Assembly (NCBI GenBank): GCA_964356225.1
Contig: CAYHGA010000001.1
Coordinates: 104,220 to 168,219 of the forward strand
Length of the DNA stretch: 64,000 nt
Direction: 5' to 3'
DNA from: an uncultured Gammaproteobacteria bacterium
GTDB taxonomy: Bacteria; Patescibacteriota; Microgenomatia; CAZETR01; Amesbacteraceae
Shown here: positions 34,211 through 54,639 of the stretch, piece after piece
How the letters are laid out: each line of letters begins with the position of its first letter
Numbering within the stretch: the first letter of the stretch is position 1
Made by a program: the position numbers and the translations under genes
The notes under the pieces: generated by a model
Told to the model about the DNA's origin: nothing
What the model saw: the letters and a program-made list of their open reading frames with translations, nothing else
Database searches by the model: none

Positions 34211-35317
34211 ATGCATGCAACTGTTTTACAGCAAGATCTAAATAAAGGGCTGGGGATAACCGGACGGGTGGTGGCCTCCCGAGGGCAAATGCCGATTTTG
34301 GCAAACATTCTGATTGAGGCGACTAAAGACGGAATAACGCTGGCGGCGACGAATTTAGAAATTGGTTTGAGGGTGGAGGTGGGAGGAAAAGTAATGGAAC
34401 CGGGGTCGATAACTATTCCGGGGAGGAACTTGGGAGAACTAGTGGGATCTCTTTCAGGGGAGAGTTTAGATTTACAAACCGAGGGGGAAAAATTAAAAAT
34501 TAAGTCTGGAAAGTCAGCGGGGGTGTTGGTGGGGATTGCTGCGAGCGAATTCCCGCCAATGCCGAGAGCGGGACAGGGGGGAAAAGGAGAGGGAGTAAAA
34601 ATTGACAAGAACATAATATTGGAAATAGCGAGCCAGGTGGCGTTTGCGGCGGCCGTGGACGAGAGCAGGCCGGTGCTTACTGGTTGTCGGTTTTCGGTGG
34701 TCGGTGATCGGTTAGTGGTGGTGGCGACGGATGGATTTCGCTTATCGCGAAAAATCCTCAATGCTCAATCCTCAATGCTCAAAGATAATTTGATTTTGCC
34801 GGCGAGGACGATACTGGAGCTGGCGAGAGTAGTAGGGGACGCGGGGGAAGTAACAATGGAGAACGTAAAAGAAAATAACCAGACGATTTTTAGCTGTGAT
34901 GGTGTGCAGTTAATATCAAGGGTGTTGGAAGGAAATTTTCCGGAAGTAGATAAAATAATTCCCCAGAGTTTTAAAACAGAGATTGGAGTGGACAGAGAAG
35001 AGCTACGGTCCTCTCTAAGAGTGGCGGGGATTTTTGCCAGAGAAAACAGCAATATTGTCAAGTTCATCGTTCATGGTTCACGGTTCATAGTAAAAGCTCA
35101 GGCGGGGCAGGTGGGGGAAAACGAGAGTGAGATGGAGATTGAAAAGGAGGGGGAGGACGGGGAGATTGCGTTTAACTACAAATTTGTGCAGGATTTTTTG
35201 GAGAGTGTAACAGAAGAAAGAGTAAAACTAAAAATAAACGACAGTTTATCACCGGGGGTGTGGGCGGGAGAAAAGGACAAGAGTTTGATTCATTTGATAA
35301 TGCCGGTGAGAGTTTAA
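34211..35317 (+). CDS. dnaN: DNA polymerase III beta sliding clamp
   Basis: MHATVLQQDLNKGL...MPILANILIEA start. Three-domain length of 368 aa. Confidence 0.9.
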   Translation: MHATVLQQDLNKGLGITGRVVASRGQMPILANILIEATKDGITLAATNLEIGLRVEVGGKVMEPGSITIPGRNLGELVGSLSGESLDLQTEGEKLKIKSGKSAGVLVGIAASEFPPMPRAGQGGKGEGVKIDKNIILEIASQVAFAAAVDESRPVLTGCRFSVVGDRLVVVATDGFRLSRKILNAQSSMLKDNLILPARTILELARVVGDAGEVTMENVKENNQTIFSCDGVQLISRVLEGNFPEVDKIIPQSFKTEIGVDREELRSSLRVAGIFARENSNIVKFIVHGSRFIVKAQAGQVGENESEMEIEKEGEDGEIAFNYKFVQDFLESVTEERVKLKINDSLSPGVWAGEKDKSLIHLIMPVRV

Positions 35318-35796
35318 TATACATTTGGCGCGGAGGTAAATTCGGTGGGCTCAAATTCATAGTTGATAGGCGCCTCTAAAGGCAGACCGCTAAAGGGTTT
35401 AACCATGACAGACATTTGATACTTTGTGTTGTAGATCCAATCTGACTTGGGGATAACGTGTAAAAGGGAGCGGTCTTTAGCGTCGATTTCGACAGAGATT
35501 TTAGTTTTCGGTTGAATATCGACCATGGCTGTACCGATCCTTAGTTCTTGGTTGAAAACGAAGGTAATAGCTGTATTGCGGAAAGCGACAGGCGATTTAC
35601 CCGGGAGAGGAAAGACGCTAACCAGTTCGAGTTTAATTGGCGCGGGGGTGGGGAAAACATTAACATTCTCAGATGGTTTTTTGGATTTAGATAACAAATA
35701 AACCATTGAAACGACAGAGATTGCCAGCAATACCAAAAACATACGGGCCCCCCTGTTTTTTAATAGATCGGACATTGCTTCTTGTTTTACTGGCAT
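35314..35796 (-). CDS. small membrane-anchored beta-rich protein (first gene of the T4SS-like cluster)
   Basis: N-terminal TM helix (MFLVLLAISVVSMVYLL) and a beta-rich ectodomain. ATGA-type coupling to the upstream giant gene. Confidence 0.35.
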   Translation of the reverse strand: MPVKQEAMSDLLKNRGARMFLVLLAISVVSMVYLLSKSKKPSENVNVFPTPAPIKLELVSVFPLPGKSPVAFRNTAITFVFNQELRIGTAMVDIQPKTKISVEIDAKDRSLLHVIPKSDWIYNTKYQMSVMVKPFSGLPLEAPINYEFEPTEFTSAPNVY

Positions 35797-38045
35797 AAGT
35801 AATTTTCAGGTTTTACAAAAAGGCCACTAACCTGCATTTCTAAGTGCAGATGGGTATTGCCTCCTTGATTATATAATTTTCCAACGGGCTTGCCAGAGTC
35901 GAGTGATTTCGTAAAATCAACTGTTGTTTGATCCATGTGCGTAAACGTTATGACATGTTTTCCAGTCTGGTCCCGATATAAGTAACTGAATCCGGAGCCT
36001 GGATTTGGAAACGACGTAGTGGGGTTCCAGGTGGTTGGGTTGCCATCAACTGACGGCGCGTAAACCCAAGCGTTGTCTCCTGGAAAAAGATCGGCGGCGT
36101 ATCCATAAAAAGGACACTTGGAAGAGGGGTGGGTTTGCTGACATTTGTTTCCGGTATTGCTGTTGGGAGCCTGACAGCCGATTAAAGTTTGCGGCAGGGG
36201 ATATGTGCAATCTTGGTGGGCGACATTGTTCCAATAATAGTTTGATCCGTGGCCGCCAGCGATGTCGTTTTCGTGCGAAGAATCGTATGATTTTTGTTTA
36301 TATACGCCATTCAAAATGGGACAAGAAATATTACGGGGGGCGTCTTGGGGTGGTTGGTTGTTTGTGGAAAACGGATTAGGGGGGACGACGAGGGCGGAGG
36401 AGTTGATGATGAAGAGAATTAGGGCGATGCCGATGGGAATACTTATGATAATGATGATTATGGGGGCGGCGATTTCGGTGGCCACAAGTCCGACCATGGC
36501 GGTGGAAGCGGTGGCAATGGCGTTACCGGTCTTGGTAAGAGCCCCGGCAACTCCGCCGGATCCTTGAATAGCAGCGCCGGCGACAGCCCCCGTAAGTCCG
36601 AGTGCGGAAGTGCCAATAAGACCCAGCCCGCCGATGACTCCACCGACTATTCCCGCCAGTCCCAGGAAAATAGCCGGAAGATATTCTTTGATGAGGATCT
36701 TGGCTTTCGACCAGAGAGTTTTGACGGCTTCGATGGCAAGGGGAATAAGAAGGGAAAGACCTAGTGTTTCCGGAGCCAAAGCGGCTCCGGCGGCGGCTTC
36801 GGCCCCGACAGCGGCAGCTTCGGTGGCAGCGGCGGTGGCGGCTTTGGTTCCTAAGGAAGTGAGAACTTTTTTACCGACTTCGGAGGCGGCGAATTTTTCC
36901 CAGGCGGCAGAGGCCACTTTGTCTTGAATTTTGTTTTTGCCGAAACCGACGAGACAATTGAACCAACCAGATTGATCTGGGGATAGAGGTTGGCCGGGGA
37001 CATGGTCCGATTGAGATGAATAAAACTGGAGCGGGCGGGTGAAATAAACAGTGCGGTAGTTGAGATATTCAATTACTTGATTTGAAAAGTAGATTTGAAC
37101 TCCGGAAACGCGCTGGGAATGCTGCGGGGGAGAGTCTGAGAGCCGGTGAGGTGTGAAAGAGGCAATGGTATTGATAAGGGGGACGAAGTGGGTGGCAAAT
37201 TGGGAAGCGAGGGACAGGGCCTGCGGGGTGGGATAACCGGCCTTGAGAAATTGGTTGTGAAGAGACAGGGTTAGGGGGGGGGTGGTAGGGGAGGGAGCTT
37301 GAATTTGGGAAATGCTGGATGCAGCAGTTTGGGGAATATTGAGAGGTTTACCAATGGCTTCTGAAGCTAGAGTTAGACGCTCAAGGAGTTGTTGGATTTG
37401 GGGGACCGTAACCTGGGGGGTGGCGATTTTGAGAACAGTGACGGCGGCGGCGGCCGGCTGGGGAAGAACTTGAATGGTTTGAAGATAAATATTTTCAATG
37501 ACGGGGTGGGAAACTTCGGGAATAAGGGGAGCTAAAATTTCAGGGAGAACAATGCTGGCAAGTTTTTCGATGGTGCCGACGGGTTCAAGAATAAGGCTGG
37601 GGGCAATATCGGGGATAGATTTTTCCAGCCCGGGAACATTTTGGGAAAGTTTTTTTAGAAGATCCAGGTGTTTTTGATAACTTTCCGCCCCAATTTTTTT
37701 TATGGCTTCGTCTTGACGGGCAAGACGCTCCTGATCTCTTTTTTCTTCTAAAAGCCTGACGTTTTCCTGGAGGTTGTCTATGGCCATGTTACTGGTGGCG
37801 TCGAGGTTGAGGGTACGAATTACATCAATGAGGGAAACAATACGGTCAAGCAGGTCTGGGTTGTTTTTTATTTGGTTGATGATGTTTTCGGCCGCGGCCC
37901 CCTTTTTTTGACGAATGGTGCTTTCGTATGCAGTCCACAGGCTGGTTTCGGTTTGGGCCAGAAACTGATAATCGTGGGGATGGAGACCGACGAGGCGAAG
38001 GGTTTCTTGAAGAACGGCGGCTTGTTTTTGAGCGAGATCGGCCAT
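35787..38045 (-). CDS. large membrane protein with C-terminal M23-like peptidase domain (T4SS-associated cell-wall hydrolase candidate)
   Basis: Helical/coiled-coil N-terminal half. Central Gly/Ala-rich multi-TM block. The C-terminus carries HENDIAGGHG and GNTHLHLEMQ motifs, which are LytM-like HxxxD and HxH. Confidence 0.45.
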   Translation of the reverse strand: MADLAQKQAAVLQETLRLVGLHPHDYQFLAQTETSLWTAYESTIRQKKGAAAENIINQIKNNPDLLDRIVSLIDVIRTLNLDATSNMAIDNLQENVRLLEEKRDQERLARQDEAIKKIGAESYQKHLDLLKKLSQNVPGLEKSIPDIAPSLILEPVGTIEKLASIVLPEILAPLIPEVSHPVIENIYLQTIQVLPQPAAAAVTVLKIATPQVTVPQIQQLLERLTLASEAIGKPLNIPQTAASSISQIQAPSPTTPPLTLSLHNQFLKAGYPTPQALSLASQFATHFVPLINTIASFTPHRLSDSPPQHSQRVSGVQIYFSNQVIEYLNYRTVYFTRPLQFYSSQSDHVPGQPLSPDQSGWFNCLVGFGKNKIQDKVASAAWEKFAASEVGKKVLTSLGTKAATAAATEAAAVGAEAAAGAALAPETLGLSLLIPLAIEAVKTLWSKAKILIKEYLPAIFLGLAGIVGGVIGGLGLIGTSALGLTGAVAGAAIQGSGGVAGALTKTGNAIATASTAMVGLVATEIAAPIIIIIISIPIGIALILFIINSSALVVPPNPFSTNNQPPQDAPRNISCPILNGVYKQKSYDSSHENDIAGGHGSNYYWNNVAHQDCTYPLPQTLIGCQAPNSNTGNKCQQTHPSSKCPFYGYAADLFPGDNAWVYAPSVDGNPTTWNPTTSFPNPGSGFSYLYRDQTGKHVITFTHMDQTTVDFTKSLDSGKPVGKLYNQGGNTHLHLEMQVSGLFVKPENYLCQ

Positions 38046-38048
38046 AGA

Positions 38049-40424
38049 CTAGGGGGTGGTTTCAGGAACTAGACGAACTTTCTCTTCTTTTTGAGCACTG
38101 AGTATTTCTGAAGGCTTGGTGGTAATGAGCTTGTGTTCGTCGGGAGAGGCGACGACGCGGATGGCGACGTGATTATTGCCGGCAAAAAACAGACCTTCGC
38201 CCACCTCGCTACTTAATAGTAAATGCTTCTCCCCCTCGGAAAGATAGAAGACCTGGGCGACTTTGTCGATGGCGGCGGGGGATTGTTTCATGAGAACTTG
38301 GATACTGGAATTGGTGACGATGGCCTTGCCGTAATCCGTGCTCAAGAAATCTTCCACGTCCTGGGTAATAGTGGTCAGCCCCAGGAAATACTTGCGGGCG
38401 CGTTTAGCAATGCCGTATAAAAAGGCGGCGGAGTCGGGGGAGCGCATCAGATACCAGGCTTCATCGACAATTAGCAGTCTCTTTTTTAAATCCCGGCGCA
38501 TTTTGGTCCAAATATAATCCAAAATAATAAAAATGGCGATGGGCTTGAGGGAGTCTTCCAAATCGCGGACGGAAAAAACAGTGAAAGGATTTTTGAGATT
38601 GACGTTGCTGGGCTGGTCGATGATGCCGCGGAAGCTGCCTTTGACGAATTTTTCAATGCGGTCGGCCAGGGCCCCGGCCTGGGGTTCTTCCATACCCACC
38701 AGGGCTTTGTAGAGGTCCTCCATGAGGGGTGGAGGGAGTTTTTGGGTTTGGGGATCTGGGGTGATGCCTTTCATTTTGTAGGTGGCAACCAGGGCCCGGT
38801 CCAAAATAGCTTCTTCGGCGGGAGACAAGACGCCCATAATGACCTTAAACAGGGAATGCAGAGAGAGAATTTTTAAGTTTAGTTCGTTTTCATCGGAAGT
38901 GTCGGTGAGGGCAGAGAGGTCGAAGGGGTTGAGGCGGCAGGGAGAATTGAAAGAAAAGTTGATATATTCGCCGCCGACGGCGTCGGAAAGAGTTTTGTAT
39001 TCGTTTTCAGGGTCGATGATAATAATTTCGGTGCCAAACATGAGGGAGCGGAGGATTTCCAGCTTGACCAGGTAGCTTTTTCCGGCGCCAGCTTTGGCAA
39101 AGACAACGGTGTTGGCGTTTTCTAAACTGAACCTGTCAAAAATTACTAAACTGCCGTTGTGCTCGTTGAGTCCATACAGCACGCCTTCGTTGCTGGTGAG
39201 TTCAGAGGAGGTAAAAGGAAAAGTAGTAGCCAGAGAAGTGGTGTCCATGTTGCGGGTGACCATGAGGTGGTCAATACAGGCAGGGAGAGTGGTTTTGAAA
39301 CCGTCGGCCTGTTGGAGAAGGGCGGGGGCGGTGGTGATAAGCAAAGAACCTAAGGTGCTGGAAACCTGTTTGGTGACCTGATTAAGTTCGCTCTCGGATT
39401 TGGCAGGAATGGTGACATACAACCCAAACTGAAAGAAGCGTTCGGCACCTTTGACCAATTGGTCTTGGAGGGAGAGGGCGTCTTCGAGTTTGGCTTGGGT
39501 GCTGGGGTCGACCACCCGGCCACGCTGCAAGTCGGTGGAGATTTCGGCCTCCATTTCGGCAATTTTCCTGCGCAGATCATCGAGAGTGGATTTGCTTTCT
39601 ACGGGGTAGACGAACATAGAGATATTTAAAGAGTGGTCAAAATTAATGAGGGGAGCCAGCCAGTTGGCGGTGACAAAACGGGGATAGCCGGCCACAAAAA
39701 GGGAGCGGAAATACCAGTCGTCGATTTTGAGGGTGTTGAAATCAACTGTAATTACTTGAGGAGCGATGGAGGAGGCGGCTGTGACTTTGGTTTCAACCTG
39801 GGAGCGGTGATAGGAGCTAAAGAAAAACTGAATAAGTTCGGGGGAAGTAAGCTGGCGGGCGCGGAGGCCGATGCGAGCCAACAATCTGGCAAGATGATCA
39901 CGCTTAGGAGAGAGAGCCAGGGCGGCGCGGGCCAGGATTTCGGCTTGGGGTTTGGGCGGAGTTGGGGACTTTTTATTGATAGAAATCAGGGATTTGAAAT
40001 TAGAGGAGATACCAAGCTCCAGAGAAGAGAAGGGAATGGCCACGTAGAACTTTTTGTCCAGGACGTTGCCCTGGCGGACGACGGTTTTAATAAAGTCGCG
40101 ATATTTGGCAAGCTGGTCATGTAAAAGAGAGTTGGCAGTTTTTCCCAGCTGCAGATCCAGGAGGGAAAGATAATCAGAAATATCCTTTTGTTTGGAGGAA
40201 ACGACGATTTGAATGGAAAAAGTGAGAGAGTTAAGAAGCTGGGCGTAGGCATAGATGGTGGCGTCCTGCTCTTTTTCGGACAATAAGCCGAAGTTAAGGG
40301 CGGAAACTTCTAACACTAAGCAAGCGGAGCCGTCTTTGAGAACGACTAAATCTTGAGCGATATCCTGGACGTCAAGATGGTCTTGGGTTGTGGATTTGAT
40401 AATGTGATTAGTTAGTTGGTTCAT
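38049..40424 (-). CDS. VirB4/TrbE/CagE-family type IV secretion ATPase
   Basis: 791 aa. Walker A VVFAKAGAGKSYLV and Walker B LLIVDEAWYLM. The overall VirB4 architecture has a long N-terminal domain. Confidence 0.8.
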   Translation of the reverse strand: MNQLTNHIIKSTTQDHLDVQDIAQDLVVLKDGSACLVLEVSALNFGLLSEKEQDATIYAYAQLLNSLTFSIQIVVSSKQKDISDYLSLLDLQLGKTANSLLHDQLAKYRDFIKTVVRQGNVLDKKFYVAIPFSSLELGISSNFKSLISINKKSPTPPKPQAEILARAALALSPKRDHLARLLARIGLRARQLTSPELIQFFFSSYHRSQVETKVTAASSIAPQVITVDFNTLKIDDWYFRSLFVAGYPRFVTANWLAPLINFDHSLNISMFVYPVESKSTLDDLRRKIAEMEAEISTDLQRGRVVDPSTQAKLEDALSLQDQLVKGAERFFQFGLYVTIPAKSESELNQVTKQVSSTLGSLLITTAPALLQQADGFKTTLPACIDHLMVTRNMDTTSLATTFPFTSSELTSNEGVLYGLNEHNGSLVIFDRFSLENANTVVFAKAGAGKSYLVKLEILRSLMFGTEIIIIDPENEYKTLSDAVGGEYINFSFNSPCRLNPFDLSALTDTSDENELNLKILSLHSLFKVIMGVLSPAEEAILDRALVATYKMKGITPDPQTQKLPPPLMEDLYKALVGMEEPQAGALADRIEKFVKGSFRGIIDQPSNVNLKNPFTVFSVRDLEDSLKPIAIFIILDYIWTKMRRDLKKRLLIVDEAWYLMRSPDSAAFLYGIAKRARKYFLGLTTITQDVEDFLSTDYGKAIVTNSSIQVLMKQSPAAIDKVAQVFYLSEGEKHLLLSSEVGEGLFFAGNNHVAIRVVASPDEHKLITTKPSEILSAQKEEKVRLVPETTP

Positions 40425-40783
40425 GGTTCATTGTTCATGGTTAACGATTTCTTTAGGGCACTAATCATTTTGGATAGGGATTCTAGTTTAGTGTAATAGA
40501 TGCTTAAGTTTTGAGGGTTAATGTATCCTTGGCTTTTTGCAATTGTTAATATGGCGACACATTCATAACATGAACCACGGGACAGGTCCAAGAAATGACG
40601 AAAGTCGTTGATTTTTCTACTGCTTCCTTCGGCGATGTTTAGAGCAATAGATACAACAGCTCTTCTTAATTGGTCGGTTAGGCCATAGGTTTCTTGTTTG
40701 GGCCATGAATTTGTAATGCTGTAAATCTCTGAAGCAATGCTTAATGCTTCTTGATAGACACGCAATTCTTCAAATTTGAACAT
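40421..40783 (-). CDS. four-helix-bundle protein (23S rRNA IVS-protein family)
   Basis: 120 aa. The sequence FEELRVYQEALSIASEIY...YGLTDQLRRAVVSIALNIAEGSSR...FLDLSRGSCYECVAIL matches the family consensus. An ATGA overlap couples it to virB4. Confidence 0.7.
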   Translation of the reverse strand: MFKFEELRVYQEALSIASEIYSITNSWPKQETYGLTDQLRRAVVSIALNIAEGSSRKINDFRHFLDLSRGSCYECVAILTIAKSQGYINPQNLSIYYTKLESLSKMISALKKSLTMNNEP

Positions 40784-40792
40784 TTCTATGAA

Positions 40793-41623
40793 CTATGAAC
40801 TAACTAACCGTGAACTTTCAAGTTGGGCTTTGATGACTATGGGGGAAATAATTTTATTTTCGGCTTGGAGAGTGAGGGGGGAAAATTGTAGGCCCTCCTT
40901 CTCGGCTATTAGAGTGTAGGTTCCTTGGGGTAGTGGGGTAGCAGTCATAAACTGGCCGAGTTTGTTGGAGCGGAGAGCCCGGACAGGAACACCTGCGGCA
41001 TCGGATAATTCTAAAATTACTCCTTCTAAGTACGATCCGGCGGAATCAAGAACTTGGCCAGTGAGAAGGTTGGGGTAGTCGGGAGAGGGAATTGAGTTAT
41101 TGGTTACTTGGTTACTTGGTTCATGGTTCATAGCGGCCGGAGGTTTGATGACTGGTGTTTGGTATTCAGTATTCAATATTCGGTGTTCGGTTGAGGGTTG
41201 AATGGCCGAGAAGGCCAGGTTGGGGTGGGAGAAGATTTGGGAGAAACGAGCAAAAAGCTGGCCTTCGATTACGTCAAGAGTAGTTTTTTTAGTTATTTGG
41301 TTAGTTGGTTCATGGTTCATGGTAGCCGGGGGTTGGGAAGTTTCGGACCAGTGAAATTCTGTGGGAGAGTAGATGGCTTTGATAAAAGCCATGATCCATT
41401 GGGAAAAAGGGCGGCCGGAGACGGGAACAAAAGCCAACATGATACCCATTAAAACCGACAGGGCCATGACGGGCCATTTAATGAAAAAAGGGAGGGGAAG
41501 GCGGTATAAAACCGCAGCAACGGCAATGCCGCCGGCTAATTGGAAAAATTGCTTGAGGGTCATGTCACCCACGAGGTGAAATTCGTATGAAGAAATATTT
41601 TGTGGTACAGGGTGCTGATCCAT
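40793..41623 (-). CDS. membrane protein with C-terminal carboxypeptidase-regulatory-like beta domain
   Basis: Two or three N-terminal TM helices. Two in-frame ATGAACCATGAACC-type micro-repeat patches (MNHEPTNQ, MNHEPSNQ). The C-terminal Ig-like GQVLDSAGSYLEGVILELSDAAGVPV region. Confidence 0.35.
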   Translation of the reverse strand: MDQHPVPQNISSYEFHLVGDMTLKQFFQLAGGIAVAAVLYRLPLPFFIKWPVMALSVLMGIMLAFVPVSGRPFSQWIMAFIKAIYSPTEFHWSETSQPPATMNHEPTNQITKKTTLDVIEGQLFARFSQIFSHPNLAFSAIQPSTEHRILNTEYQTPVIKPPAAMNHEPSNQVTNNSIPSPDYPNLLTGQVLDSAGSYLEGVILELSDAAGVPVRALRSNKLGQFMTATPLPQGTYTLIAEKEGLQFSPLTLQAENKIISPIVIKAQLESSRLVSS

Positions 41624-41656
41624 TTTAAACAGTGCTCAGATAAAAGAGAAAAGTGC

Positions 41657-41899
41657 TCAGGATTTTAACCCTAAGTTTTTGATAGTTGTTGTAAGTAACT
41701 TGATGACTTCTTTTTTACTGTTTCTTCCGTATCCTTCGGCGATATTTGCACCAATTGAACTAGAGGATCTTAATATTTGTTTGTATAAAACTTCAGACGT
41801 TTTGTTACCAGGAAGATGGCTAAAAAGAAGAACTATTTCTTTTGTCCCCTGTTTGGCTTTCTGAAAATAGATGAGATTATGATGATCAAAGTAACTCAT
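41657..41899 (-). pseudogene. C-terminally truncated second four-helix-bundle protein (remnant)
   Basis: EVLYKQILRSSSSIGANIAEGYGRNSKKEVIKLL matches the family core, but the ORF stops about 35 aa early. Confidence 0.35.
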
Positions 41900-41986
41900 A
41901 GGCAGGCTAAATCTATACTGAGTACTTCTCTCTGAGCACTGAGTACTAGTCAATAGTACCCCGTGAAGTCTTTTGTGCAAGTTGCG

Positions 41987-42004
41987 GGCTTTTTCACACA
42001 AAAG
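41987..42004. repeat. 18-bp direct repeat GGCTTTTTCACACAAAAG, copy 1, upstream of mntA
   Basis: An identical 18-mer recurs at 42884-42901 immediately after the hepT stop. Both copies lie upstream of a TTGTAG...TATAAT-like promoter. Confidence 0.55.
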
Positions 42005-42031
42005 TTTTGTAGCCGATGGTATAATTTTATT

Positions 42032-42463
42032 ATGGTTAAGTTGGACATCAATAGAAAAGGGCTGGAAAAAATTTGTCGCAAATACGGCGTGATTGCGGTG
42101 TATGTGCATGGGTCGCAAGTTAAGGGTTATGCCGCACCGGATTCAGATACTGACGTGGCGGTGGTAGTGAGAGATAGAAATAAGTTGGAACGAGGACATT
42201 TCGGTAGCTATAACGTTGTAAATGAAATGGAAGGAGTGTTGAGTATAAAAAACCCCGACGTGAGAGTAGTTGACAAAGACAGTTCGCCAGTGTTTCTATT
42301 CGAGATTATTTCTGATGGAAAAATCGTTTATCAGGAGAACGAAAGTTCTAGGCTTGGATTTGAAGAGAGAGTTTTGCGAACTTATTATGATGCTGAATAT
42401 ATGAGAGAAGTTTATGGAGATTATTTATACAGAGATATTAAAGCGAGGGCCTATGCCAATTAA
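42032..42463 (+). CDS. mntA: MntA-type minimal nucleotidyltransferase (antitoxin of a HepT/MntA module)
   Basis: The NTase signature is YVHGSQVKGYAAPDSDTDVAVVV. It is followed by an overlapping HEPN gene. Confidence 0.6.
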   Translation: MVKLDINRKGLEKICRKYGVIAVYVHGSQVKGYAAPDSDTDVAVVVRDRNKLERGHFGSYNVVNEMEGVLSIKNPDVRVVDKDSSPVFLFEIISDGKIVYQENESSRLGFEERVLRTYYDAEYMREVYGDYLYRDIKARAYAN

Positions 42464-42884: not shown

Positions 42885-42901
42885 GCTTTTTCACACAAAA
42901 G
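42884..42901. repeat. 18-bp direct repeat GGCTTTTTCACACAAAAG, copy 2
   Basis: See copy 1. It lies 26 bp upstream of the 827-aa ORF. Confidence 0.55.
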
Positions 42902-42926
42902 GGAGTGGATGTTGTAGAATTGTGGT

Positions 42927-45410: not shown

Positions 45411-45420
45411 TTTAGGAATT

Positions 45421-47211: not shown

Positions 47212-47242
47212 TGATATTACTTTAGCATAAATTTATCGAATA

Positions 47243-49162
47243 TTATTGGGCCAGACTGGCGGATTTGATGATGAGCTGGAGGGGGGCGGTGTTTTTTTTG
47301 ACAACCGAGCTGTATACCTGATCACCCAATCCTTCCACTTGTTGATCGTTGGCAGGATCACGGAAGACGGACATGGTATATTCGCCGGCGGTGTCTTCCA
47401 GAGATGAGAAAGGAATGTTTTGAAATAACTGTTTCCACCAATCACCATTTTTAACATAAACGGGGGTGCCCTTGTTGGGATCGAAATCGTCTAGACGTTT
47501 TTTGAAGACGGCAGGGTCGGAACAGGGTTTGGCAGACGTACCCAGAGCGTCATTGCAGCCTACAATTGTGTTGTGAACGTCCTGTTGTCTGGATTCGATG
47601 ACGACGTTTTTGAGAGTGGTGGCCAAGTCGAAAGGGAGAAGTTTGCGCAGGGGGCCGGAATAGTTGACTACGCGGCTGATAGCGGCGGGGTTATTGGAAT
47701 CAATGGGCAGCTGGTCGCCGATTTGGGGAGTGCCGGTGAGGTACCAGGACAAATATTCGTTGACTTTTTGGGCGTCGGTGAGGGTGGTGTCCTGGGTGTT
47801 ACTTAAAACGCCTAAATTGGCGTGAGAGAGATCGACGGTAACGTCAAAAGCTGACGAGCGCCAGCAGGTGACGGTTCCACCATTTTGGAGCATGTTTTTG
47901 AAGTCTCTTTTTTCTTGGTCCGATGTTCCGAATTCGCTGGGATAACAAACGGTATGAGCAAAACCCTTTGTTGTTCTCCTTTCGTATAACCCGTTTTTGC
48001 CATAGGGATCAAAGCGTTCAATTGCCGATGGCGTCAGCGATGTGCCACAAGCAAAAGTATTAAATTTCTTTTCGGAAGTAAGCGGAGCTTCGGGAACGGA
48101 GCGGGAGATTAGGGGATCGCAAGGAGAGCCGGGATATGGGCGCAGAGGATGATATTCAGGGTCGGCAGGATTACCACTACAGGGATAATATTTGAGGGGG
48201 TTAAACCCTTCTTCTAATGGGCCTTTTTTCTGGGGGAGAGGAGGACCAGTGGGAATTTCATCAAACTTATAACCAACTTCACCAAGATAAAAGGGCTTAC
48301 CAAGCTGATTAGATTGATCTTGGGCTTGGGACGCAAGGGACTTTTCCGAGGGATTATAGTAGTGAGCAGAAGTAAGGTCAATGGACGAAGAATTATTACT
48401 GTTTTTAAAGTCACCATTGCCTGGGCTGTCGCCTAAAGTAGTATTTTCGTTCGATTTTTGGCCGATACTGACTTTGGCATCGGAATCGATACGTTTTATT
48501 TGTTGGGCAACATCGTTAGCCCAAAGTTTGTAAGGTCCACGACAAGCGTCAATACCACTACAATGCGGCTCGTTGGCGAGTTCATAGCCAAAGAGCGACG
48601 GATTTCCTTTCAATTTACTAACGACGGATTTTATATATGGAAGATAAGCCGTTTTATAGTCGGAAAGATACCAAGATGTGGGATCGGATCTGATATCACC
48701 AGGGAGAATATCCCCACTACTGTTACTGTAATCTGCGAGAACGACGATGGTTTTGACACCATATTTTTCGGCAGAGTCCAATACTAATTTTGGGTCTCCC
48801 CGGTCGGGACTGCCCCAAACGCGGACAACGGAAACTCCACACTCCTTTGATAAATAAGAAAATGTGTCGTCTGTTTGAGTAGGATGATTGGCCAAACTAT
48901 GAATGTTAACACCGATGAATTTGCCGGAATATTTATCGGCGGCTTGTTTGAGAATGCCACAAACAGGACTTCCTTTGTAAAATGAATAGGGATCGTTTTC
49001 GAAATACTTGTCTTTTGGGCCGGAGTATTGCCAGACAAGAAAACCGGCAGCACCGGAGCCAAACCACTGGTCGAGGTCAGATTGTAAATCGTCGAGTGGA
49101 CCGGCCAAAACGGCGGGAGCCGTAATTAAAATTATGCACAAAAATAGTAAAAGTTTTTTCAT
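47243..49162 (-). CDS. secreted glycoside hydrolase family 5 enzyme
   Basis: Signal peptide MKKLLLFLCIILITAPAVLA. GH5 acid/base motif ELANEPHC and nucleotide-side nucleophile motif YLGEVGY. A long extra C-terminal domain follows. Confidence 0.55.
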   Translation of the reverse strand: MKKLLLFLCIILITAPAVLAGPLDDLQSDLDQWFGSGAAGFLVWQYSGPKDKYFENDPYSFYKGSPVCGILKQAADKYSGKFIGVNIHSLANHPTQTDDTFSYLSKECGVSVVRVWGSPDRGDPKLVLDSAEKYGVKTIVVLADYSNSSGDILPGDIRSDPTSWYLSDYKTAYLPYIKSVVSKLKGNPSLFGYELANEPHCSGIDACRGPYKLWANDVAQQIKRIDSDAKVSIGQKSNENTTLGDSPGNGDFKNSNNSSSIDLTSAHYYNPSEKSLASQAQDQSNQLGKPFYLGEVGYKFDEIPTGPPLPQKKGPLEEGFNPLKYYPCSGNPADPEYHPLRPYPGSPCDPLISRSVPEAPLTSEKKFNTFACGTSLTPSAIERFDPYGKNGLYERRTTKGFAHTVCYPSEFGTSDQEKRDFKNMLQNGGTVTCWRSSAFDVTVDLSHANLGVLSNTQDTTLTDAQKVNEYLSWYLTGTPQIGDQLPIDSNNPAAISRVVNYSGPLRKLLPFDLATTLKNVVIESRQQDVHNTIVGCNDALGTSAKPCSDPAVFKKRLDDFDPNKGTPVYVKNGDWWKQLFQNIPFSSLEDTAGEYTMSVFRDPANDQQVEGLGDQVYSSVVKKNTAPLQLIIKSASLAQ

Positions 49163-51330
49163 GGTGAAACGACACATGAGGCGATATTCAAAACGCTTTG
49201 TTGATAACAAGTGGAAGGATTGGCGACACAAGATGGCCGGGGTGGATATTTGGGGTCGGGATGTTTGGGATCTTCACAATAACCAAGGTATTGTCTGGCG
49301 GCTGTAACAATGTCTGAATTATTCCAATAGCAAGAGGTAGAAGGACCTTGGTTAGTATTGAGCACATAACCAATACATTCAGGAATAGAGTAGCTGGCGG
49401 CTCCACCACGTTCTTGACCAATTTTTTTAGCTGCTGCAAAAGTGGAGTCTAATAGATTACAAATATTGGGGGTACGACCATCGGACACTCCTGCTTCAAC
49501 GACAGCATTGGAATACGAGGACCACGTGCTAGGCAAGAATTGCCAGGGACCTTTAGCGCCGGAACTGCTAATATTACTACCATCACAATTAGTTACTTGA
49601 CAGTTTGGGCCACTGACAGCAAGAACTTTGGATTCATCCCAACCCCATGAAGGGTTAAGGCCTCCCTCATTATAAAATACGCCAACTAGAACAGAGACGG
49701 GAACTTTATAGAATGAGGCAGCTGATTCAAAAATATTTTTCATTGATAATGAAGGAAAAGATATCGAGCAAGTTTGGCATGTAGGGTCGATAATTGGCAG
49801 GGTGGGGAGTGTTGGAGTGCAGGCATTTTGATTGTTGGGAGGAGTAGTAGAAAAACCCAGGGGCCGGAGGGTTTTTTGCAGGCCCTGCAGGAAATATTCA
49901 TACAGACTGCCTAGATGGGGAATATAGATAGTGGGCGTGGCAGAGCCATTTCCGGCCTGAATATTTACTCTGCTACCTTCCTGGTTTACTCCGGTTGCCT
50001 CAGCTAAAAAACTAGCCTGGGAAGGGATTTCCTTAAACTCTTTGGGTAAATTCTTGGGAAAGATTCTTTTTAAGACCGATTGTGATCCTACTACCAGCGA
50101 ATCGTAAATATATTCTATAAGGGGAGTTTTGGTATACACCACGGCCCGGCCCTTGGTAGGATAATCGTTACCAGCGCGGGTGGCGCATTTGTAATAAACA
50201 TCCTCAGTTCCGATTAAGTTAGGGACGACCGTGACTTGCGGAGTCAAAGAATAATAACCATTCCCCTCATATTCCGAACAACATTTGGTGCCGGACCGCC
50301 GTTCTGTCTCGGATATATTGTAATTGTCTTCTTTACATCCGTCCGGGTGGGGAGCGGTTTCATAGGTATATTTTTGGGTATAAGTCAGACTGGATACAAT
50401 TGTGGGGCCCAGGAGATCGTCTCCGGGGTTGGCGCGGGTATCGGCGATACTGCAAAAACCGGAGGCTTTGTAAGGAAGATTGGGGTCGTTGAAAGAATAG
50501 AGAGGATCGGGAGCGGGGGCATTTACTTTCAAGGAAGAATTATTTTTGTCAGACACGTATTGGGTGTCGTCGTCCAGCCCTTGATGAAGCTGAATGCGGG
50601 TGGTAACGGCGGCGGGATTATCAAGAGAAGCTGATTGGGGAGCGGGGGGCTCGGCGTTTTTATTGAATGAGCCGGGAGCGGGATTGAAAATAGACTGGAG
50701 GAGAGTGGACAGGGCGGAGATATTTCTGAGCTGAGGAAACCAGAGGCGGGATTCGCCGGCGCCACTCCTGGCGATATTGGTGCAGAAGCCATATGGAGGG
50801 GTAACTGAAGGAAGAGAGGGAGAGCAATCATTGGGTTTGGGGGGAATTCCTGTTTGACTGCAAGAGTTTTTTGAACCACAACAAAAGACATTGTCGGAAC
50901 AAACTTTGACAGTGTTTATACCAGGAGAACCAAAAGTTAGTCCGTTAAAGGTGAACGGGCCGGAAGTCTGGGTTTCGATTTGGCCTTTGATGGGGGGGGT
51001 GGGGAGGGAGCTGGCCCCTTGGGCAAAATTGGCACCGTAACAGACCCAAAAATTTTGATTGCCGTCGATACCATACGCGCACCAGGGAATAATTTCGGGG
51101 GAAGTGCCGCAAATAGGGGATTTGAGAGTGTCGTAGGCCAAAGTTTCTTCTTTGGTGTCGCAGTACATTTGGATTCCCTGAAACTGGGCCGGAAATGGGG
51201 ATGTGCCGGTTTTTTGACAACGGCAGAGATCTTTTTGAGGATCATTACACCAGCAAGCCGCCCCCGCCGGAGGCGGGGCGGCAGAGCCCAGAAGGAAGAG
51301 AAAAGTGCTCAGGGCAAGAAATTTCTTCAC
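49159..51330 (-). CDS. secreted Cys-rich protein with C-terminal lytic transglycosylase (SLT-like) domain
   Basis: Signal peptide. N-terminal CWCNDPQKDLCRCQ. The C-terminal FYNEGGLNPS...SSGAKGPWQFLPSTW resembles the SLT E...S...GxMQ..P.TW motifs. Confidence 0.45.
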   Translation of the reverse strand: MKKFLALSTFLFLLGSAAPPPAGAACWCNDPQKDLCRCQKTGTSPFPAQFQGIQMYCDTKEETLAYDTLKSPICGTSPEIIPWCAYGIDGNQNFWVCYGANFAQGASSLPTPPIKGQIETQTSGPFTFNGLTFGSPGINTVKVCSDNVFCCGSKNSCSQTGIPPKPNDCSPSLPSVTPPYGFCTNIARSGAGESRLWFPQLRNISALSTLLQSIFNPAPGSFNKNAEPPAPQSASLDNPAAVTTRIQLHQGLDDDTQYVSDKNNSSLKVNAPAPDPLYSFNDPNLPYKASGFCSIADTRANPGDDLLGPTIVSSLTYTQKYTYETAPHPDGCKEDNYNISETERRSGTKCCSEYEGNGYYSLTPQVTVVPNLIGTEDVYYKCATRAGNDYPTKGRAVVYTKTPLIEYIYDSLVVGSQSVLKRIFPKNLPKEFKEIPSQASFLAEATGVNQEGSRVNIQAGNGSATPTIYIPHLGSLYEYFLQGLQKTLRPLGFSTTPPNNQNACTPTLPTLPIIDPTCQTCSISFPSLSMKNIFESAASFYKVPVSVLVGVFYNEGGLNPSWGWDESKVLAVSGPNCQVTNCDGSNISSSGAKGPWQFLPSTWSSYSNAVVEAGVSDGRTPNICNLLDSTFAAAKKIGQERGGAASYSIPECIGYVLNTNQGPSTSCYWNNSDIVTAARQYLGYCEDPKHPDPKYPPRPSCVANPSTCYQQSVLNIASCVVSP

Positions 51331-51339
51331 CAGTTTATT

Positions 51340-51627
51340 CTAGCAGACGGGGCCGGGGAGGCAGATGGAGAACATGGAGAAATTCAGTCCAAGGAAATTC
51401 CCCAGTAAGTTTAAGATAATCCAGGCAGATAAAACCAAGACCAGGCCACCGATGGCGTAGGTGAGAGTTTTTTGAGCTTTGGCGGCGCCTTCTTTGTCTC
51501 CACCGGCAGTTAAAAACCCAAAACCGCCCACAATCAACATTACTAAGACCGCAATTCCGGCTAAGGTCAAAGCACCGGAGACCACGGATGAAAAGACGGT
51601 TTCGAGATTTTGAATAGTGGCGGGCAT
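51340..51627 (-). CDS. pilin-like small 2-TM protein (VirB2/TrbC-like candidate), paralog 8 (promoter-distal; the array is minus-strand)
   Basis: 95 aa, two TM helices. The family motif is AGGDKEGAAKAQKTLTYAIGGLVLVLSAWII. Confidence 0.5.
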   Translation of the reverse strand: MPATIQNLETVFSSVVSGALTLAGIAVLVMLIVGGFGFLTAGGDKEGAAKAQKTLTYAIGGLVLVLSAWIILNLLGNFLGLNFSMFSICLPGPVC

Positions 51628-51704
51628 GTTTTTATTTTAACACTTCTCATCAAAACCAAATTGTCCCGCTTGCGGCGGGACAATTTAACGTCAACCCTAA
51701 GCAA

Positions 51705-52118
51705 CTATTGGGTAGTAATTGAGGGAATTACGAGGTTTAGAATACTGATGCCGAATATGCTATCGATAAGGAACGCAATGGCGTAGGTAGAAAAGACAAT
51801 CGCAAGGCCCAATAGGGCGGCCGTAATACGCTTGCGAGCTTTTTCGGTCCCTTCTTTGTCGCCGCCGGCCATAATCCATTGGACTCCTCCTATTAAGAGA
51901 AAGAAGAAGGCGACTAAACCTGCGCCCATTAGCACAAGGTTAATGCTGAGGCGAAGGATGTTTTGGGCATTAAACGTTCCCTCAGTGCCGATTGTCTGCC
52001 CTATTCCAGACTTAGGGATTAAGTCTATATTTTCTGCAAGGGCTGTGGTTGGTGATACGGTGAGCATTGTTGCTAGAGCAGAACCGTATTTGATGGCGTT
52101 TTTAATTTTGTTTGTCAA
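51705..52118 (-). CDS. pilin-like small 2-TM protein, paralog 7
   Basis: 137 aa. Contains MAGGDKEGTEKARKRITAALLGLAIVFSTYAI. Confidence 0.5.
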   Translation of the reverse strand: MTNKIKNAIKYGSALATMLTVSPTTALAENIDLIPKSGIGQTIGTEGTFNAQNILRLSINLVLMGAGLVAFFFLLIGGVQWIMAGGDKEGTEKARKRITAALLGLAIVFSTYAIAFLIDSIFGISILNLVIPSITTQ

Positions 52119-52133
52119 AGATGCTCACCTCCT

Positions 52134-52472
52134 TTACTGGATGACAGGAATTGTAAATTTAGTAATAGAAACACCAAATAATGTTTCAACTAAGTAGATT
52201 ATAGCAAAGATGGAGAAGACAATTGCAAGACCTATTAAAGCAGCGGTGAGACGTTTGGAGGCGGATTGGGTGCGTTCTTTGTCTCCTCCGGCGGTGATAT
52301 ATTCTATTCCGCCCCAGAGGAGCATAAAAAAGAAAATAATGCCGGCGGCTCCCAAAGCTAGAGTAATAAAATTGGTGAGAAAGAGCTGGAGGATGTCGAT
52401 GCCGGAACTATAACCAACGCTAGTATTGATTGCGGGGTTTTTAATGACGAAACCTTGGGCAAGTATTCTCAT
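52134..52472 (-). CDS. pilin-like small 2-TM protein, paralog 6
   Basis: 112 aa. Contains TAGGDKERTQSASKRLTAALIGLAIVFSIFAI. Confidence 0.5.
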   Translation of the reverse strand: MRILAQGFVIKNPAINTSVGYSSGIDILQLFLTNFITLALGAAGIIFFFMLLWGGIEYITAGGDKERTQSASKRLTAALIGLAIVFSIFAIIYLVETLFGVSITKFTIPVIQ

Positions 52473-52909
52473 CTTCGTGGAGTGCCACCGCCTCCAGTAC
52501 TACCGGGAATGTTACAAGTAAAGGTTGTGGTTCCGATGGTATTGGAAAAAAGGTCTCCAAATGGACAAAGGATGTTTATTCCGAAGATTAATCCTATGAT
52601 TCCAATTAGGGCGTAGGAAAATACGACTACAAACAGTCCTAAAATAGCATTCACGATTCTTTTTTGGGCGTTTTGCAGGGCTTGTTTTTCTCCTCCACCC
52701 GCTAACCACTGAAAGGCTCCGGCAAATATTTGAATGATAAACCAGACTCCGGCCGCAACAGTGAGAACACCGATTCCCGTGGAAAGAGTGGAGACAAAAA
52801 GGGCAAAGGGCTCTGTTCCTCCTTTGGTCAGGGTCTTGGTAAAATCTCCCAGGGGCCCCACGCCCTCAAAAGTTCCTAAAGGAGCGTCGGCTAAGAATTT
52901 CATGGGCAT
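52469..52909 (-). CDS. pilin-like small 2-TM protein, paralog 5
   Basis: 146 aa. Contains LAGGGEKQALQNAQKRIVNAILGLFVVVFSYAL. Confidence 0.5.
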   Translation of the reverse strand: MPMKFLADAPLGTFEGVGPLGDFTKTLTKGGTEPFALFVSTLSTGIGVLTVAAGVWFIIQIFAGAFQWLAGGGEKQALQNAQKRIVNAILGLFVVVFSYALIGIIGLIFGINILCPFGDLFSNTIGTTTFTCNIPGSTGGGGTPRR

Positions 52910-53256
52910 GATCCGGGCCCGTAAATAACGGGGGAGATAATGGCGGTGGCATCGCCAAAAATTAAATAGCCAAAGATTCCTGCAAGAACAAATGAGCCGG
53001 CGACAAAAGTCAGACCGAGGAGAGATTGGGTGAACTTGCCAAAAGCCTTACCCATGGCTTTGGCATCGTCACCGGCGGACATAAATCCGTAACCGGCGGC
53101 AATGAAATTCCAAAAAGCATATAGGCCGGCCAGGACGATGACCGTTTTAAGCAGGCCATTGCTTAGAGTAATCAATCCAGATCCACATTCACTACCTTTT
53201 AGGGGTGAATTTAATGTTGCAAACGGGTCATAAATTTTACCGAATGGGGAAATCAT
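52900..53256 (-). CDS. pilin-like small 2-TM protein, paralog 4
   Basis: 118 aa. Contains MSAGDDAKAMGKAFGKFTQSLLGLTFVAGSFVL. Confidence 0.5.
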   Translation of the reverse strand: MISPFGKIYDPFATLNSPLKGSECGSGLITLSNGLLKTVIVLAGLYAFWNFIAAGYGFMSAGDDAKAMGKAFGKFTQSLLGLTFVAGSFVLAGIFGYLIFGDATAIISPVIYGPGSCP

Positions 53257-53597
53257 AGTCTTATGTTAAAAAAGTCGATGCCGGTAATGACCCCGACTGC
53301 TTGGAGTATAAAATAAGCGGAGATGACAAGCAAGAATCCGATAACGGAAAATGTGATAGTATTTTTTGCTTGAGCTGCGGCTTTGGCGTCATCTCTGCCG
53401 GCTGACGAAATCATGGAAAATCCGGCGCCAAGCAGTAAAAACAAAAATATGACTCCGGCGCCAATGAGAGCGTTGGGGAGAAGGGAAGTGATAAGAGTAC
53501 CGAGATTGGCGTTGGTCCCGCCCGCAATGCCTGCGGCTTGAGGGGAATTTGTAAAAAACTGTTCATTAATGTCTACTTGGGATAATAATTTGGTCAT
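53253..53597 (-). CDS. pilin-like small 2-TM protein, paralog 3
   Basis: 114 aa. Contains SSAGRDDAKAAAQAKNTITFSVIGFLLVISAYFI. Confidence 0.5.
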   Translation of the reverse strand: MTKLLSQVDINEQFFTNSPQAAGIAGGTNANLGTLITSLLPNALIGAGVIFLFLLLGAGFSMISSAGRDDAKAAAQAKNTITFSVIGFLLVISAYFILQAVGVITGIDFFNIRL

Positions 53598-53899
53598 AAG
53601 ATTTCGATGCCAAAGATGGTTTGTATAACCTGAATTATAAAGTAAGCGGAAATGACAACTAATAAACCAATAAGAGCATTGACAAGTTCTTTAGAGGCGC
53701 TCTGGATTTTGTTTTGATCACCGGCGTTGGTGAGGTAGGTGTATCCGGCGGAAATAAGACGAACGAAGAAAAATAAACCGGAGAGGGCGATGGCAAAAGT
53801 AAGAATGCGGGCTACATAATATCCAAGAAACACATCTGGGGTAAGAAGATTTAGGGGACCAGGTTGGTTAATGCCAGTGATTTGGGCGAGTTGTTTCAT
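53594..53899 (-). CDS. pilin-like small 2-TM protein, paralog 2
   Basis: 101 aa. Contains TNAGDQNKIQSASKELVNALIGLLVVISAYFI. Confidence 0.5.
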   Translation of the reverse strand: MKQLAQITGINQPGPLNLLTPDVFLGYYVARILTFAIALSGLFFFVRLISAGYTYLTNAGDQNKIQSASKELVNALIGLLVVISAYFIIQVIQTIFGIEIL

Positions 53900-54639
53900 A
53901 GGTTGAGACCAGGATTTCCTACGAAGCCGGGTAAATTAAGGATTTTTACTCCAATAAAGTTTAACAGAACGAGGCTTAATGCAATAATGATGAGGCCGGC
54001 GAGGGCGGACATGAGCAGTTCGCGGGCGGCTTGAACCTTTTTCGGGTCGCCACTGGCGGTGGTCATTTGAAAGCCGGCTAAGACGATCATCAAAAAGGCA
54101 ATACCTCCGCCAACCCCTACTCCCCAACCTAAGAGTTGGGAAACCAGCTGTTTGGGATCTCCGGCCATCAAACAACCAATGGCAGTAGAGACTCCAAGAT
54201 TATCTGTGCCACAAAGAGCGCTTGAGCTGGCTGCGGGGGGATTGATGAGAGAAACACACACTCCGCTGCTGCAATTTCCGAAACTGCAGGTGTTTCCGGG
54301 ACAACAAGTTTGTCCTACATTACCGCAAGCTGCACAGTGAATTGTATTGTCGCAGTTCAGGTTGTTGAAGCAGCGAAAACCGCCAGTATATGAACCGCAA
54401 CAAGGATCTCCGACTTTATCACAAGTAGTGGGGGGGGTAGTGGGGGCTGGGATTTTACAATGGATTGTACTATCGCACTCGCTTGCTGGTGGATTGCAAT
54501 ACAAAATACTAGTTATAGAACCACAACAGGCATCGCCTACAGCGCTGCAGTTGGTGGCGAGGGAGGGGGACGGCCGGAGGCCGGAATAAACACCAATAAG
54601 TACCAAGGCCGAAATAAATATTAATAATTTACCGTTCAC
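53896..54639 (-). CDS. pilin-like protein with N-terminal triple Cys-rich module, paralog 1
   Basis: 247 aa with a signal peptide. It has three repeats of GDxCCGS...C.N...C..TIHC, then the family 2-TM core (TASGDPKKVQAARELLMSALAGLIIIALSL). Confidence 0.5.
   Translation of the reverse strand: MNGKLLIFISALVLIGVYSGLRPSPSLATNCSAVGDACCGSITSILYCNPPASECDSTIHCKIPAPTTPPTTCDKVGDPCCGSYTGGFRCFNNLNCDNTIHCAACGNVGQTCCPGNTCSFGNCSSGVCVSLINPPAASSSALCGTDNLGVSTAIGCLMAGDPKQLVSQLLGWGVGVGGGIAFLMIVLAGFQMTTASGDPKKVQAARELLMSALAGLIIIALSLVLLNFIGVKILNLPGFVGNPGLNL

Follow-up and report, generated by a model that had tools for sequence, protein, structure and literature searches.

Type IV secretion systems (T4SSs) of the Patescibacteria have been described in two recent studies. 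Southlakia epibionticum carries a T4SS with a pilin array that is essential for epibiotic growth and in which neither a coupling protein nor a relaxase could be recognised (Wang et al. 2023, PMC10633639). A phylum-wide survey found a monophyletic VirB4 clade related to the MPF-FATA family of mating-pair formation (MPF) systems, with widespread TrsD, PrgI/VirB3, VirB6 and VirB2-like proteins, near-absent relaxases and a cluster location near dnaA/dnaN; arrays of 2-11 divergent pilins of ~25% identity occur especially in Microgenomatia and Saccharimonadia, and VirB6 and VirB1 were barely detectable in Microgenomatia (Quiñonero-Coronel et al. 2025, PMC12102498). A 2025 review gives the same picture (PMC12857230). 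Here we analysed a stretch of 64,000 nt (hereafter the window; contig CAYHGA010000001.1 of assembly GCA_964356225.1, positions 104,220 to 168,219), in which a block of genes at 35314-54639, mostly on the minus strand, resembles these systems. In our reading, to which we give a probability of roughly 0.85, the block is a chromosomal, origin-proximal T4SS of the Patescibacteria type in a member of the Microgenomatia (Amesbacteria-like), derived from the MPF-FATA family and uncoupled from DNA transfer.

The block shares with the S. epibionticum cluster (SEML1_0006-0019) an MPF-FATA VirB4, a putative TrsD-like N-terminal sequence, PrgI/VirB3 and VirB6-like proteins, a tandem VirB2-like array, candidate peptidase and lysozyme-type hydrolases by virB4, the lack of a relaxase or type IV coupling protein (T4CP) nearby, and the location beside dnaA/dnaN. 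It differs from the published Patescibacteria systems in that the putative TrsD part and VirB4 form one open reading frame (ORF), the VirB6-like protein is invisible to hidden Markov models (HMMs), the hydrolase function is spread over two cysteine-rich modular exoproteins, one of them GH5 mannanase-like, and the cluster is interrupted by a convergent gene of 827 aa, a toxin-antitoxin (TA) pair and a cassette with a 23S_rRNA_IVP gene (IVP cassette). A preliminary description made from the letters and ORF translations of this DNA had proposed a T4SS-like envelope machine of a monoderm, minimal type, and this is supported. It had also called the architecture undescribed, and this claim is not supported, because the architecture was published in 2023 and 2025 (PMC10633639, PMC12102498); the cluster is of a kind already described, with lineage-level variations. 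The GH5 domain, the cysteine-rich modular hydrolases and the 827-aa gene are not described in those two accounts. What the window adds is a divergent candidate VirB6 of Microgenomatia that is backed at the level of the fold, the swapping of hydrolase domains, a hypervariable convergent gene and the IVP cassette that splits prgI and virB4.

ORFs were called mechanically, and domains were assigned by Pfam gathering scores (GA) and NCBIfam cut-offs. ORF calling recovered the block in the position and largely with the genes given by the preliminary description, as two packed minus-strand runs, the two operons of the machine, around a 3.8-kb plus-strand segment. The first run goes from 54639 down to 45421 and holds eight small genes followed by genes of 723, 639 and 596 aa; the second goes from 41623 down to 35314, with genes of 276, 120, 791, 752 and 160 aa. 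The preliminary description had missed the PrgI/VirB3 gene (40793-41623), the 23S_rRNA_IVP gene (40421-40783) and an MNT/HepT pair (41963-42884).

The 791-aa VirB4 ATPase (38049-40424, minus strand) scored 389 bits with NCBIfam NF045971 (conju_CD1110, the CD1110/CTn2 conjugal ATPase family; cut-off 325) and E=6e-31 with Pfam P-loop_TraG, as expected from its earlier naming, and its Walker A (AKAGAGKS) and Walker B (LLIVDEAW) motifs were intact on direct reading. Judged by this match above the curated equivalog cut-off, the protein is related to the MPF-FATA family. Residues 10-68 gave a weak match to the TrsD model NF041427 (21 bits; cut-off 200), hinting at a possible TrsD-like N-terminal part fused to the ATPase. 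We compared the protein with the relatives' fetched loci (numbered L003-L090). The relatives frequently split virB4 at about residue 206-220, and the equivalent N-terminal 200-315 aa then form a separate ORF annotated as TraC-like; in many other loci, the virB4 matches were 0.3-1 kb longer than the query.

The 276-aa PrgI/VirB3-like protein (40793-41623, minus strand) matched PF12666 PrgI with 36.6 bits (GA 27) and has two transmembrane (TM) segments and, at the C-terminus, a CarboxypepD_reg-like beta-sandwich; its gene contains a 189-nt internal duplication. Within prgI, a 49-nt segment is repeated 189 nt apart (41097-41145 and 41286-41334, 84% identity); it encodes PPA(T/A)MNHEP(T/S)NQ(I/V)T twice in the linker from the PrgI domain to the beta-sandwich and contains the heptamer element treated below. 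In the closest relative, Candidatus Amesbacteria GW2011_GWA1_47_20 (L043, 9242-13996), prgI and virB4 form a single ORF of 1584 aa, with an insert of ~580 aa that starts right after Walker A GSGK|S, ends with ...VHN|S, carries LAGLIDADG-like motifs and is probably an intein, to judge by these sequence features. The 2025 survey reported no VirB3-VirB4 fusions (PMC12102498).

Eight VirB2-like pilin genes on the minus strand open the first run. Pilin 1 (53896-54639), the first gene of the operon, reached 43 bits with PF18895 T4SS_pilin (GA 26.6) and E=7e-6 with the pilin-like family NF045849; behind a signal peptide, its N-terminal domain holds 20 cysteines arranged in roughly three repeats, and the VirB2-like hairpin follows at the C-terminus. 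The seven further pilins lie at 53594-53899, 53253-53597, 52900-53256, 52469-52909, 52134-52472, 51705-52118 and 51340-51627, and four of these seven were at or over the PF18895 GA, two were below it and one gave no match, so that five of the eight (51340-54639) reach it. All eight aligned as a two-TM hairpin (TM1, AGGD(K) loop, TM2) with 24-38% identity, as the eight pilin-like paralogs of the preliminary description should, and their genes overlap by 4-10 bp, mostly 4 bp. Orthologous arrays were found in L010, L016, L034, L086, L088 and L090. Tandem amplification of divergent VirB2 in a T4SS locus is shared with the virB2 arrays of Bartonella and Anaplasma, where it is thought to diversify host contact; those bacteria are diderm intracellular animal pathogens, and their arrays stand alongside a full VirB/D4 set.

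The 596-aa protein (45421-47211, minus strand) is a polytopic membrane protein with a signal peptide, an extracytoplasmic N-terminus of ~240 aa with 8 cysteines and a helical TM core. The predicted structure has a VirB6-type helical membrane fold, and the gene stands in a T4SS context, which makes the family a good candidate for a divergent Microgenomatia VirB6. VirB6 is scarce in Microgenomatia, and this has been ascribed to extreme sequence divergence (PMC12102498). Identity to TrwI/VirB6 of the R388 Trw system and to DotA of the Legionella Dot-Icm system is only 9-11%; those systems are diderm, and the large cysteine-containing extracytoplasmic domain of the window protein is unlike TrwI and DotA.

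Three proteins of the block resemble wall or glycan hydrolases. The secreted 723-aa protein (49159-51330, minus strand) contains 31 cysteines. Its N-terminus is cysteine-rich, the modules in its middle are conserved (NPGDDL; YFPHLGS.YEYFL.G.QK.LRP), and towards the C-terminus, about residues 530-680 look lysozyme/SLT-like. Searched against the Protein Data Bank (PDB), its family profile matched the lytic transglycosylase EtgA and the muramidase Tse3 with E ~0.7 at positions 533-677, and a YNEGG motif aligned with the catalytic ES/EG region. Seven weak SLT-type matches were obtained in the family of 27 members (four SLT_2, two Transglycosylas, one SLT_3), and the positional orthologues of L047 (SLT_3, 30 bits) and L086 (PF01464 SLT) were above threshold. 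The C-terminus is probably SLT- or lysozyme-like, which these alignments suggest and do not establish.

The next gene encodes the secreted 639-aa GH5 protein (47243-49162, minus strand); its ATG at 49162 and the stop codon before it share the letters ATGA. Its N-terminal GH5 beta-mannanase-like domain scored 33.6 bits with PF00150 (GA 23.5), in agreement with the secreted GH5 enzyme proposed earlier; the nearest solved relatives are fungal GH5 beta-mannanases (PDB 1qno, E=1.1e-14), and the catalytic motifs NEP (ANEPH) and GE(V)G with the nucleophile glutamate (LGEVG) were present by direct reading. Cysteine-containing modules follow (YHPLRPYPGSPC; NEYLSWYLTG; NYSGPLRKLLP; IPFSSLED). The GH5 domain is 60% identical in L088, and L090 has a different N-terminal domain there. 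In relatives, the modules of the 723-aa and 639-aa proteins are combined in one protein of 800-1300 aa, with various glycosidase-like domains at the ends.

The 752-aa membrane protein (35787-38045, minus strand) begins with ~390 aa on the cytoplasmic side, continues with a TM region rich in Gly and Ala, and ends in an extracytoplasmic domain that contains cysteines and matched a PHROG metallo-endopeptidase with E=3.9e-5. Compared with a bona fide M23 protein of the window, HxH (HLHLE), the catalytic His and the Asp are kept and the first zinc-ligand His is replaced (YGYAAD), and we class the domain from its sequence as M23-like. At this position the relatives carry M23 (50.6 bits, L028), CHAP (L034) or the phosphodiester glycosidase NAGPA (L044); the position is thus that of a membrane-anchored wall hydrolase with an exchangeable catalytic domain. 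The results showed that hydrolase domains are swapped between lineages, with GH5 or other TIM-like domains in the exoproteins and M23, CHAP or NAGPA in the membrane protein, and this swapping is consistent with adaptation to differing host envelopes. The product of the last gene of the second operon (35314-35796, minus strand) has 160 aa, a single TM segment and a bacterial Ig-like domain (Big_5, PF13205, 25.4 bits; GA 23.6); orthologues were found in L003 and L044 only.

The synteny sample consisted of 80 fetched VirB4 loci, the best genomic relatives of the window VirB4; nearly all came from metagenome-assembled genomes (MAGs) of Microgenomatia or other Patescibacteria, as judged by record title or gene content, and the closest were Microgenomatia MAGs (up to 86% identity), the nearest being Candidatus Amesbacteria. 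The names on many of the TPA records are unrelated to this placement. PrgI adjoins virB4 in 71 of the 80 loci, and dnaA and dnaN do so in 59. The recurrent order is pilin array, large cysteine-rich exoprotein(s), B6-like gene, convergent large ORF, PrgI, TrsD-like part and VirB4, hydrolase-tailed membrane protein and dnaN-dnaA; it is complete in several loci, including L034, L077, L010, L016, L084, L088 and L090. In the window, dnaA (32694-34055) and dnaN (34211-35317) are immediately beside the block, and the 160-aa gene overlaps the dnaN stop convergently. The right flank from SpoIID through SmpB is also found in L090. Neither relaxase nor VirD4/T4CP nor integrase was found in the 64-kb window (Pfam on 20 non-obvious ORFs outside the block, the remaining ORFs read by eye), which upholds the earlier remark that VirD4 and relaxase are missing, and a repeat search found no attachment-site-like repeats flanking the block; the integrase and attachment-site duplications considered in the preliminary description were thus not borne out. 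GC content is 0.43-0.52 in the block and 0.41-0.50 outside, with a constant sign of GC skew, and over 37853-41333, which spans the prgI-IVP-virB4 junctions, the sequence is 99.97% identical in an independent Logan assembly. The block is not a chimeric assembly. Because dozens of species-level relatives have it in the same place, with dnaN on one side and housekeeping genes on the other, the locus is vertically inherited and chromosomal. The recurrent order and the shared right flank of L090 show that it is not an island, and the uniform GC and skew, the lack of integrase, relaxase, VirD4 and flanking repeats in the window, and the matching assembly agree.

The monoderm MPF-FATA systems (pCF10 Prg/Pcf, ICEBs1 Con and C. 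difficile CTn2) share with the window VirB4 (PrgJ/ConE/CD1110-type), PrgI/VirB3, a VirB6 analogue (PrgH/ConG), a wall hydrolase (PrgK/CwlT, bifunctional) and the lack of an outer-membrane core complex. They differ in having a relaxase, a T4CP, a VirB8-like protein, surface adhesins and a location on mobile elements, and in having no VirB2 pilins, whereas the window has pilins and neither relaxase nor T4CP, and its locus lies on the chromosome and is conserved by vertical descent. The main rival reading, that the block is the MPF module of an integrative and conjugative element (ICE) of the ICEBs1/CTn2 type sending DNA to other cells, could draw on the best VirB4 model, which is that of a CTn2-type conjugative ATPase family, on PrgI and hydrolases typical of monoderm conjugation, and on a tmRNA gene ~6 kb from the cluster. 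Against this stand the lack of relaxase, T4CP and integrase in the window and of flanking attachment-like repeats, the uniform GC and skew, and the position conserved in dozens of species-level relatives; we rejected the ICE, which is very improbable here. With neither a coupling protein nor a relaxase nearby, the earlier view that roles outside conjugation are no less plausible holds.

What the sequence shows is the gene content, the homology or fold of the parts, the conserved synteny and the lack of relaxase, T4CP and integrase in the 64-kb window. For the preferred reading of a T4SS uncoupled from DNA transfer, we infer the working of the machine, including pilus formation, substrate and transport direction, by analogy with solved T4SSs and from the cited literature. 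PrgI would tether the VirB4 hexamer to the membrane, VirB4 would extract pilins from it, and the VirB6-like platform would be where the pilins polymerise to form a pilus or conduit. The hydrolases would open the own wall and possibly the host envelope, and the structure might then contact a host cell and serve the uptake or delivery of macromolecules for epibiotic life, not plasmid conjugation. The transport may be import (of DNA, RNA or nutrients) or export (of effectors). A machine that imports DNA or other nucleic acids, on the lines of ComB in H. pylori or Ced in archaea, and feeds a cell without nucleotide synthesis is a sub-case of the preferred reading and not a separate machine. It has been proposed in published hypotheses, and it fits the absent relaxase and T4CP, a comF-like gene 6.5 kb downstream, and a 2026 preprint that ties Patescibacteria parasitism to host-RNA uptake and in which interface tubes are tentatively read as possible T4SS pili; scores with the models of the Ced import ATPases fall well short of the cut-offs (CedB 44 bits against 700, CedD 17 against 600), which counts against it. 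We regard import as possible, at rather less than even odds. Eight divergent pilins, one of them a cysteine-rich fusion, and lineage-variable exoprotein domains are typical of host-range determinants and would suit an organelle for host adhesion and specificity only, with no translocation. Such an organelle is unlikely, as the VirB6-like channel, the wall hydrolases and a VirB4 with intact catalytic motifs are all retained, and type IV pili already give adhesion in the one studied lineage (PMC12857230). A plus-strand insertion (the TA pair and the 827-aa gene) and the IVP cassette between prgI and virB4 might also suggest an assembly chimera or a decayed, non-functional remnant, which is hardly credible: all cluster ORFs are intact with coupled overlaps, the Logan assembly agrees at the prgI-IVP-virB4 junctions, the convergent gene is conserved and no accident, and the cassette gives an in-frame stop and start.

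Several points weigh against the preferred reading or limit it. The VirB6 assignment, made as TrbL/VirB6-like in the preliminary description, rests on predicted structure and context, with a Foldseek E that is not significant (0.4); the TrbL/VirB6 model PF04610 did not match the 596-aa protein and matched one of 40 relatives at E=0.006, and the B6-family profile retrieved nothing relevant among PDB sequences. The 723-aa protein, earlier called an SLT-domain protein, gave no Pfam or NCBIfam match, so that its SLT similarity lies under the curated threshold, and the call stands on the orthologues and the weak family matches. The 752-aa protein keeps M23-like motifs and weak matches from its earlier description as a giant M23 membrane protein; its M23 match (PF01551) is 18-20 bits, under the GA of 28.7, and at 752 aa it is not giant. 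The 723-aa, 752-aa and 596-aa proteins, each searched singly against PDB sequences, gave no match. No VirB8-like component was identified. The search covered 64 kb, and a T4CP or relaxase could sit elsewhere in the genome; many Patescibacteria genomes have T4CP homologues, which seldom lie close to virB4 (PMC12102498). Reviews call the function of the Patescibacteria T4SS 'completely unknown'.

The product of the gene convergent to the VirB6-like gene (42927-45410, plus strand) is 827 aa long and lacks both TM segments and a signal peptide. It gave no match in Pfam, NCBIfam, PHROG or PADLOC, and an AlphaFold2 model built from 3 sequences was unusable (pLDDT 40). An exhaustive profile search with it retrieved 64 proteins at E<=1e-3, and its relatives are convergent to the B6-like gene in every context with enough flank (L044, L047, L082, L084, L086 and the window). 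All 23 loci with a B6-like gene carry, no more than 400 nt away and on the other strand, an ORF of 443-1365 aa that is poor in TM segments (0-1 predicted). Among these ORFs, at least 18 groups are not linked by jackhmmer; jackhmmer and phmmer left mostly singletons, and hhalign gave one moderate link, to L034 (probability 44%, E=2e-4). Pfam found no domain in six convergent-position ORFs of five relative loci or in the two closest homologues of the 827-aa protein. In L090, B6 is 62% identical to that of the window and the partner is unrelated; in L088, the exoproteins are 61-64% identical and the partner is again unrelated. By these sequence comparisons, the slot is invariant in position, and its sequence is replaced or diverges extremely fast; the partners may be one fast-evolving family or unrelated cassettes. 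The slot might be a hypervariable, cassette-like place for a translocated substrate or effector, or for a host-specificity factor, of the Microgenomatia T4SS; we put this forward as a speculation that we think doubtful.

Between prgI and virB4 lies the IVP cassette (40411-40808, minus strand). Its gene (40421-40783) encodes a four-helix bundle protein of 120 aa (PF05635, 114 bits), and it is bounded by a 21-nt inverted repeat of tandem heptamers (40411-40431 and 40788-40808). The cassette supplies, in frame, the stop of prgI and the start of virB4 (MNQLTNH). Comparison with the continuous prgI-virB4 frame of L043 revealed a target-site-like duplication of ~9-11 nt, ATCAAA[G/T]CC, on either side of the insert. 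In L088 (13816-14236) and L090 (13955-14377), IVP genes are found at other cluster junctions, with heptamer inverted repeats of 31-32 nt and different sequence; the spacing of the inverted repeats, 356-361 nt, is the same in the window, L088 and L090. From these features, the element looks like a small mobile cassette, similar to an rRNA intervening sequence, that splits genes without inactivating them. We found no description of such an IVP cassette in the literature searched.

Dispersed tandem-heptamer elements (ATGAAYYATGAAYY) were observed across the window, with 22 matches where 0.41 would be expected. All but two of the 22 matches are on the minus strand, independent of gene orientation, and they often lie in frame within ORFs, encoding MNHEP or MNYEL. 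Examples are found at 2489-2509, 18073-18093, 27993-28006, 28282-28302, 28426-28439, 29003-29016, 35061-35088, 41118-41131, 41307-41320, 55887-55900 and 58288-58308. Arrays of at least three copies occur ten times in the 64 kb. The pattern was absent from 89 other loci and present in L081 only, which is the same organism. The heptamer elements may be solo arms or footprints of IVP cassettes. Upstream of prgI, a short ORF (41657-41899, minus strand) contains the motif ...SIGANIAEGYGR..., IVP-family-like by eye (NIAEG), and this is a place where L088 has an IVP gene; compared with the intact IVP protein by BLASTP, the ORF gave no alignment. The ORF may be a decayed second IVP cassette.

The plus-strand segment also carries an MNT nucleotidyltransferase and HepT toxin-antitoxin pair (41963-42884; PF18765/PF01909 and PF01934). 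An exact 18-nt direct repeat, GGCTTTTTCACACAAAAG (D12), at 41987-42004 and 42884-42901 brackets the pair, one copy being upstream of the probable MNT start and the other upstream of the 827-aa gene, an arrangement suggesting that a leader was duplicated and the TA pair placed behind it. The unit of MNT, HepT and partner also occurs in L082. A defence-system reading of the plus-strand insert was unsupported by PADLOC and PHROGs beyond the MNT/HepT pair. Directly upstream of the pilin array (54650-55796), a DUF6036/AbiEii-like nucleotidyltransferase gene and a gene for a helix-turn-helix protein overlap each other in a TA-like pairing. The relatives' clusters repeatedly host small TA-type modules and AAA_14/DUF4143 genes, and in L090 an NTP_transf_2 and NTase_sub_bind pair lies inside the pilin array.

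The left flank beyond dnaA/dnaN contains, as read from the translations, rnpA, yidD, yidC and jag, and the right flank contains a SpoIID-like gene, smpB, tmRNA and the comF-like gene. The ComF-like protein (61177-61848; double zinc ribbon and phosphoribosyltransferase) is encoded past smpB and tmRNA, counting from the pilin array; comF near a T4SS was noted in the class ABY1 by the 2025 survey (PMC12102498). GC skew is +0.09 to +0.43 in every 2-kb bin of 1-64000, on both sides of dnaA/dnaN and irrespective of gene strand, and the cumulative skew climbs monotonically; the canonical rnpA-yidC-dnaA-dnaN region shows no change of sign. This leaves two readings, a replication origin located elsewhere or another cause for the skew of this genome. 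The missing switch bears on the published idea that proximity to the origin boosts T4SS expression.

The T4SS of Patescibacteria is essential in the only lineage tested, and the window leaves the picture of its substrate and direction as it is. For the Microgenomatia, it gives leads: a candidate VirB6 family supported by its fold, swappable disulfide-rich hydrolases and a hypervariable convergent gene, possibly a cargo or specificity factor, which, if the former is true, would be the first candidate cargo for a Patescibacteria T4SS.

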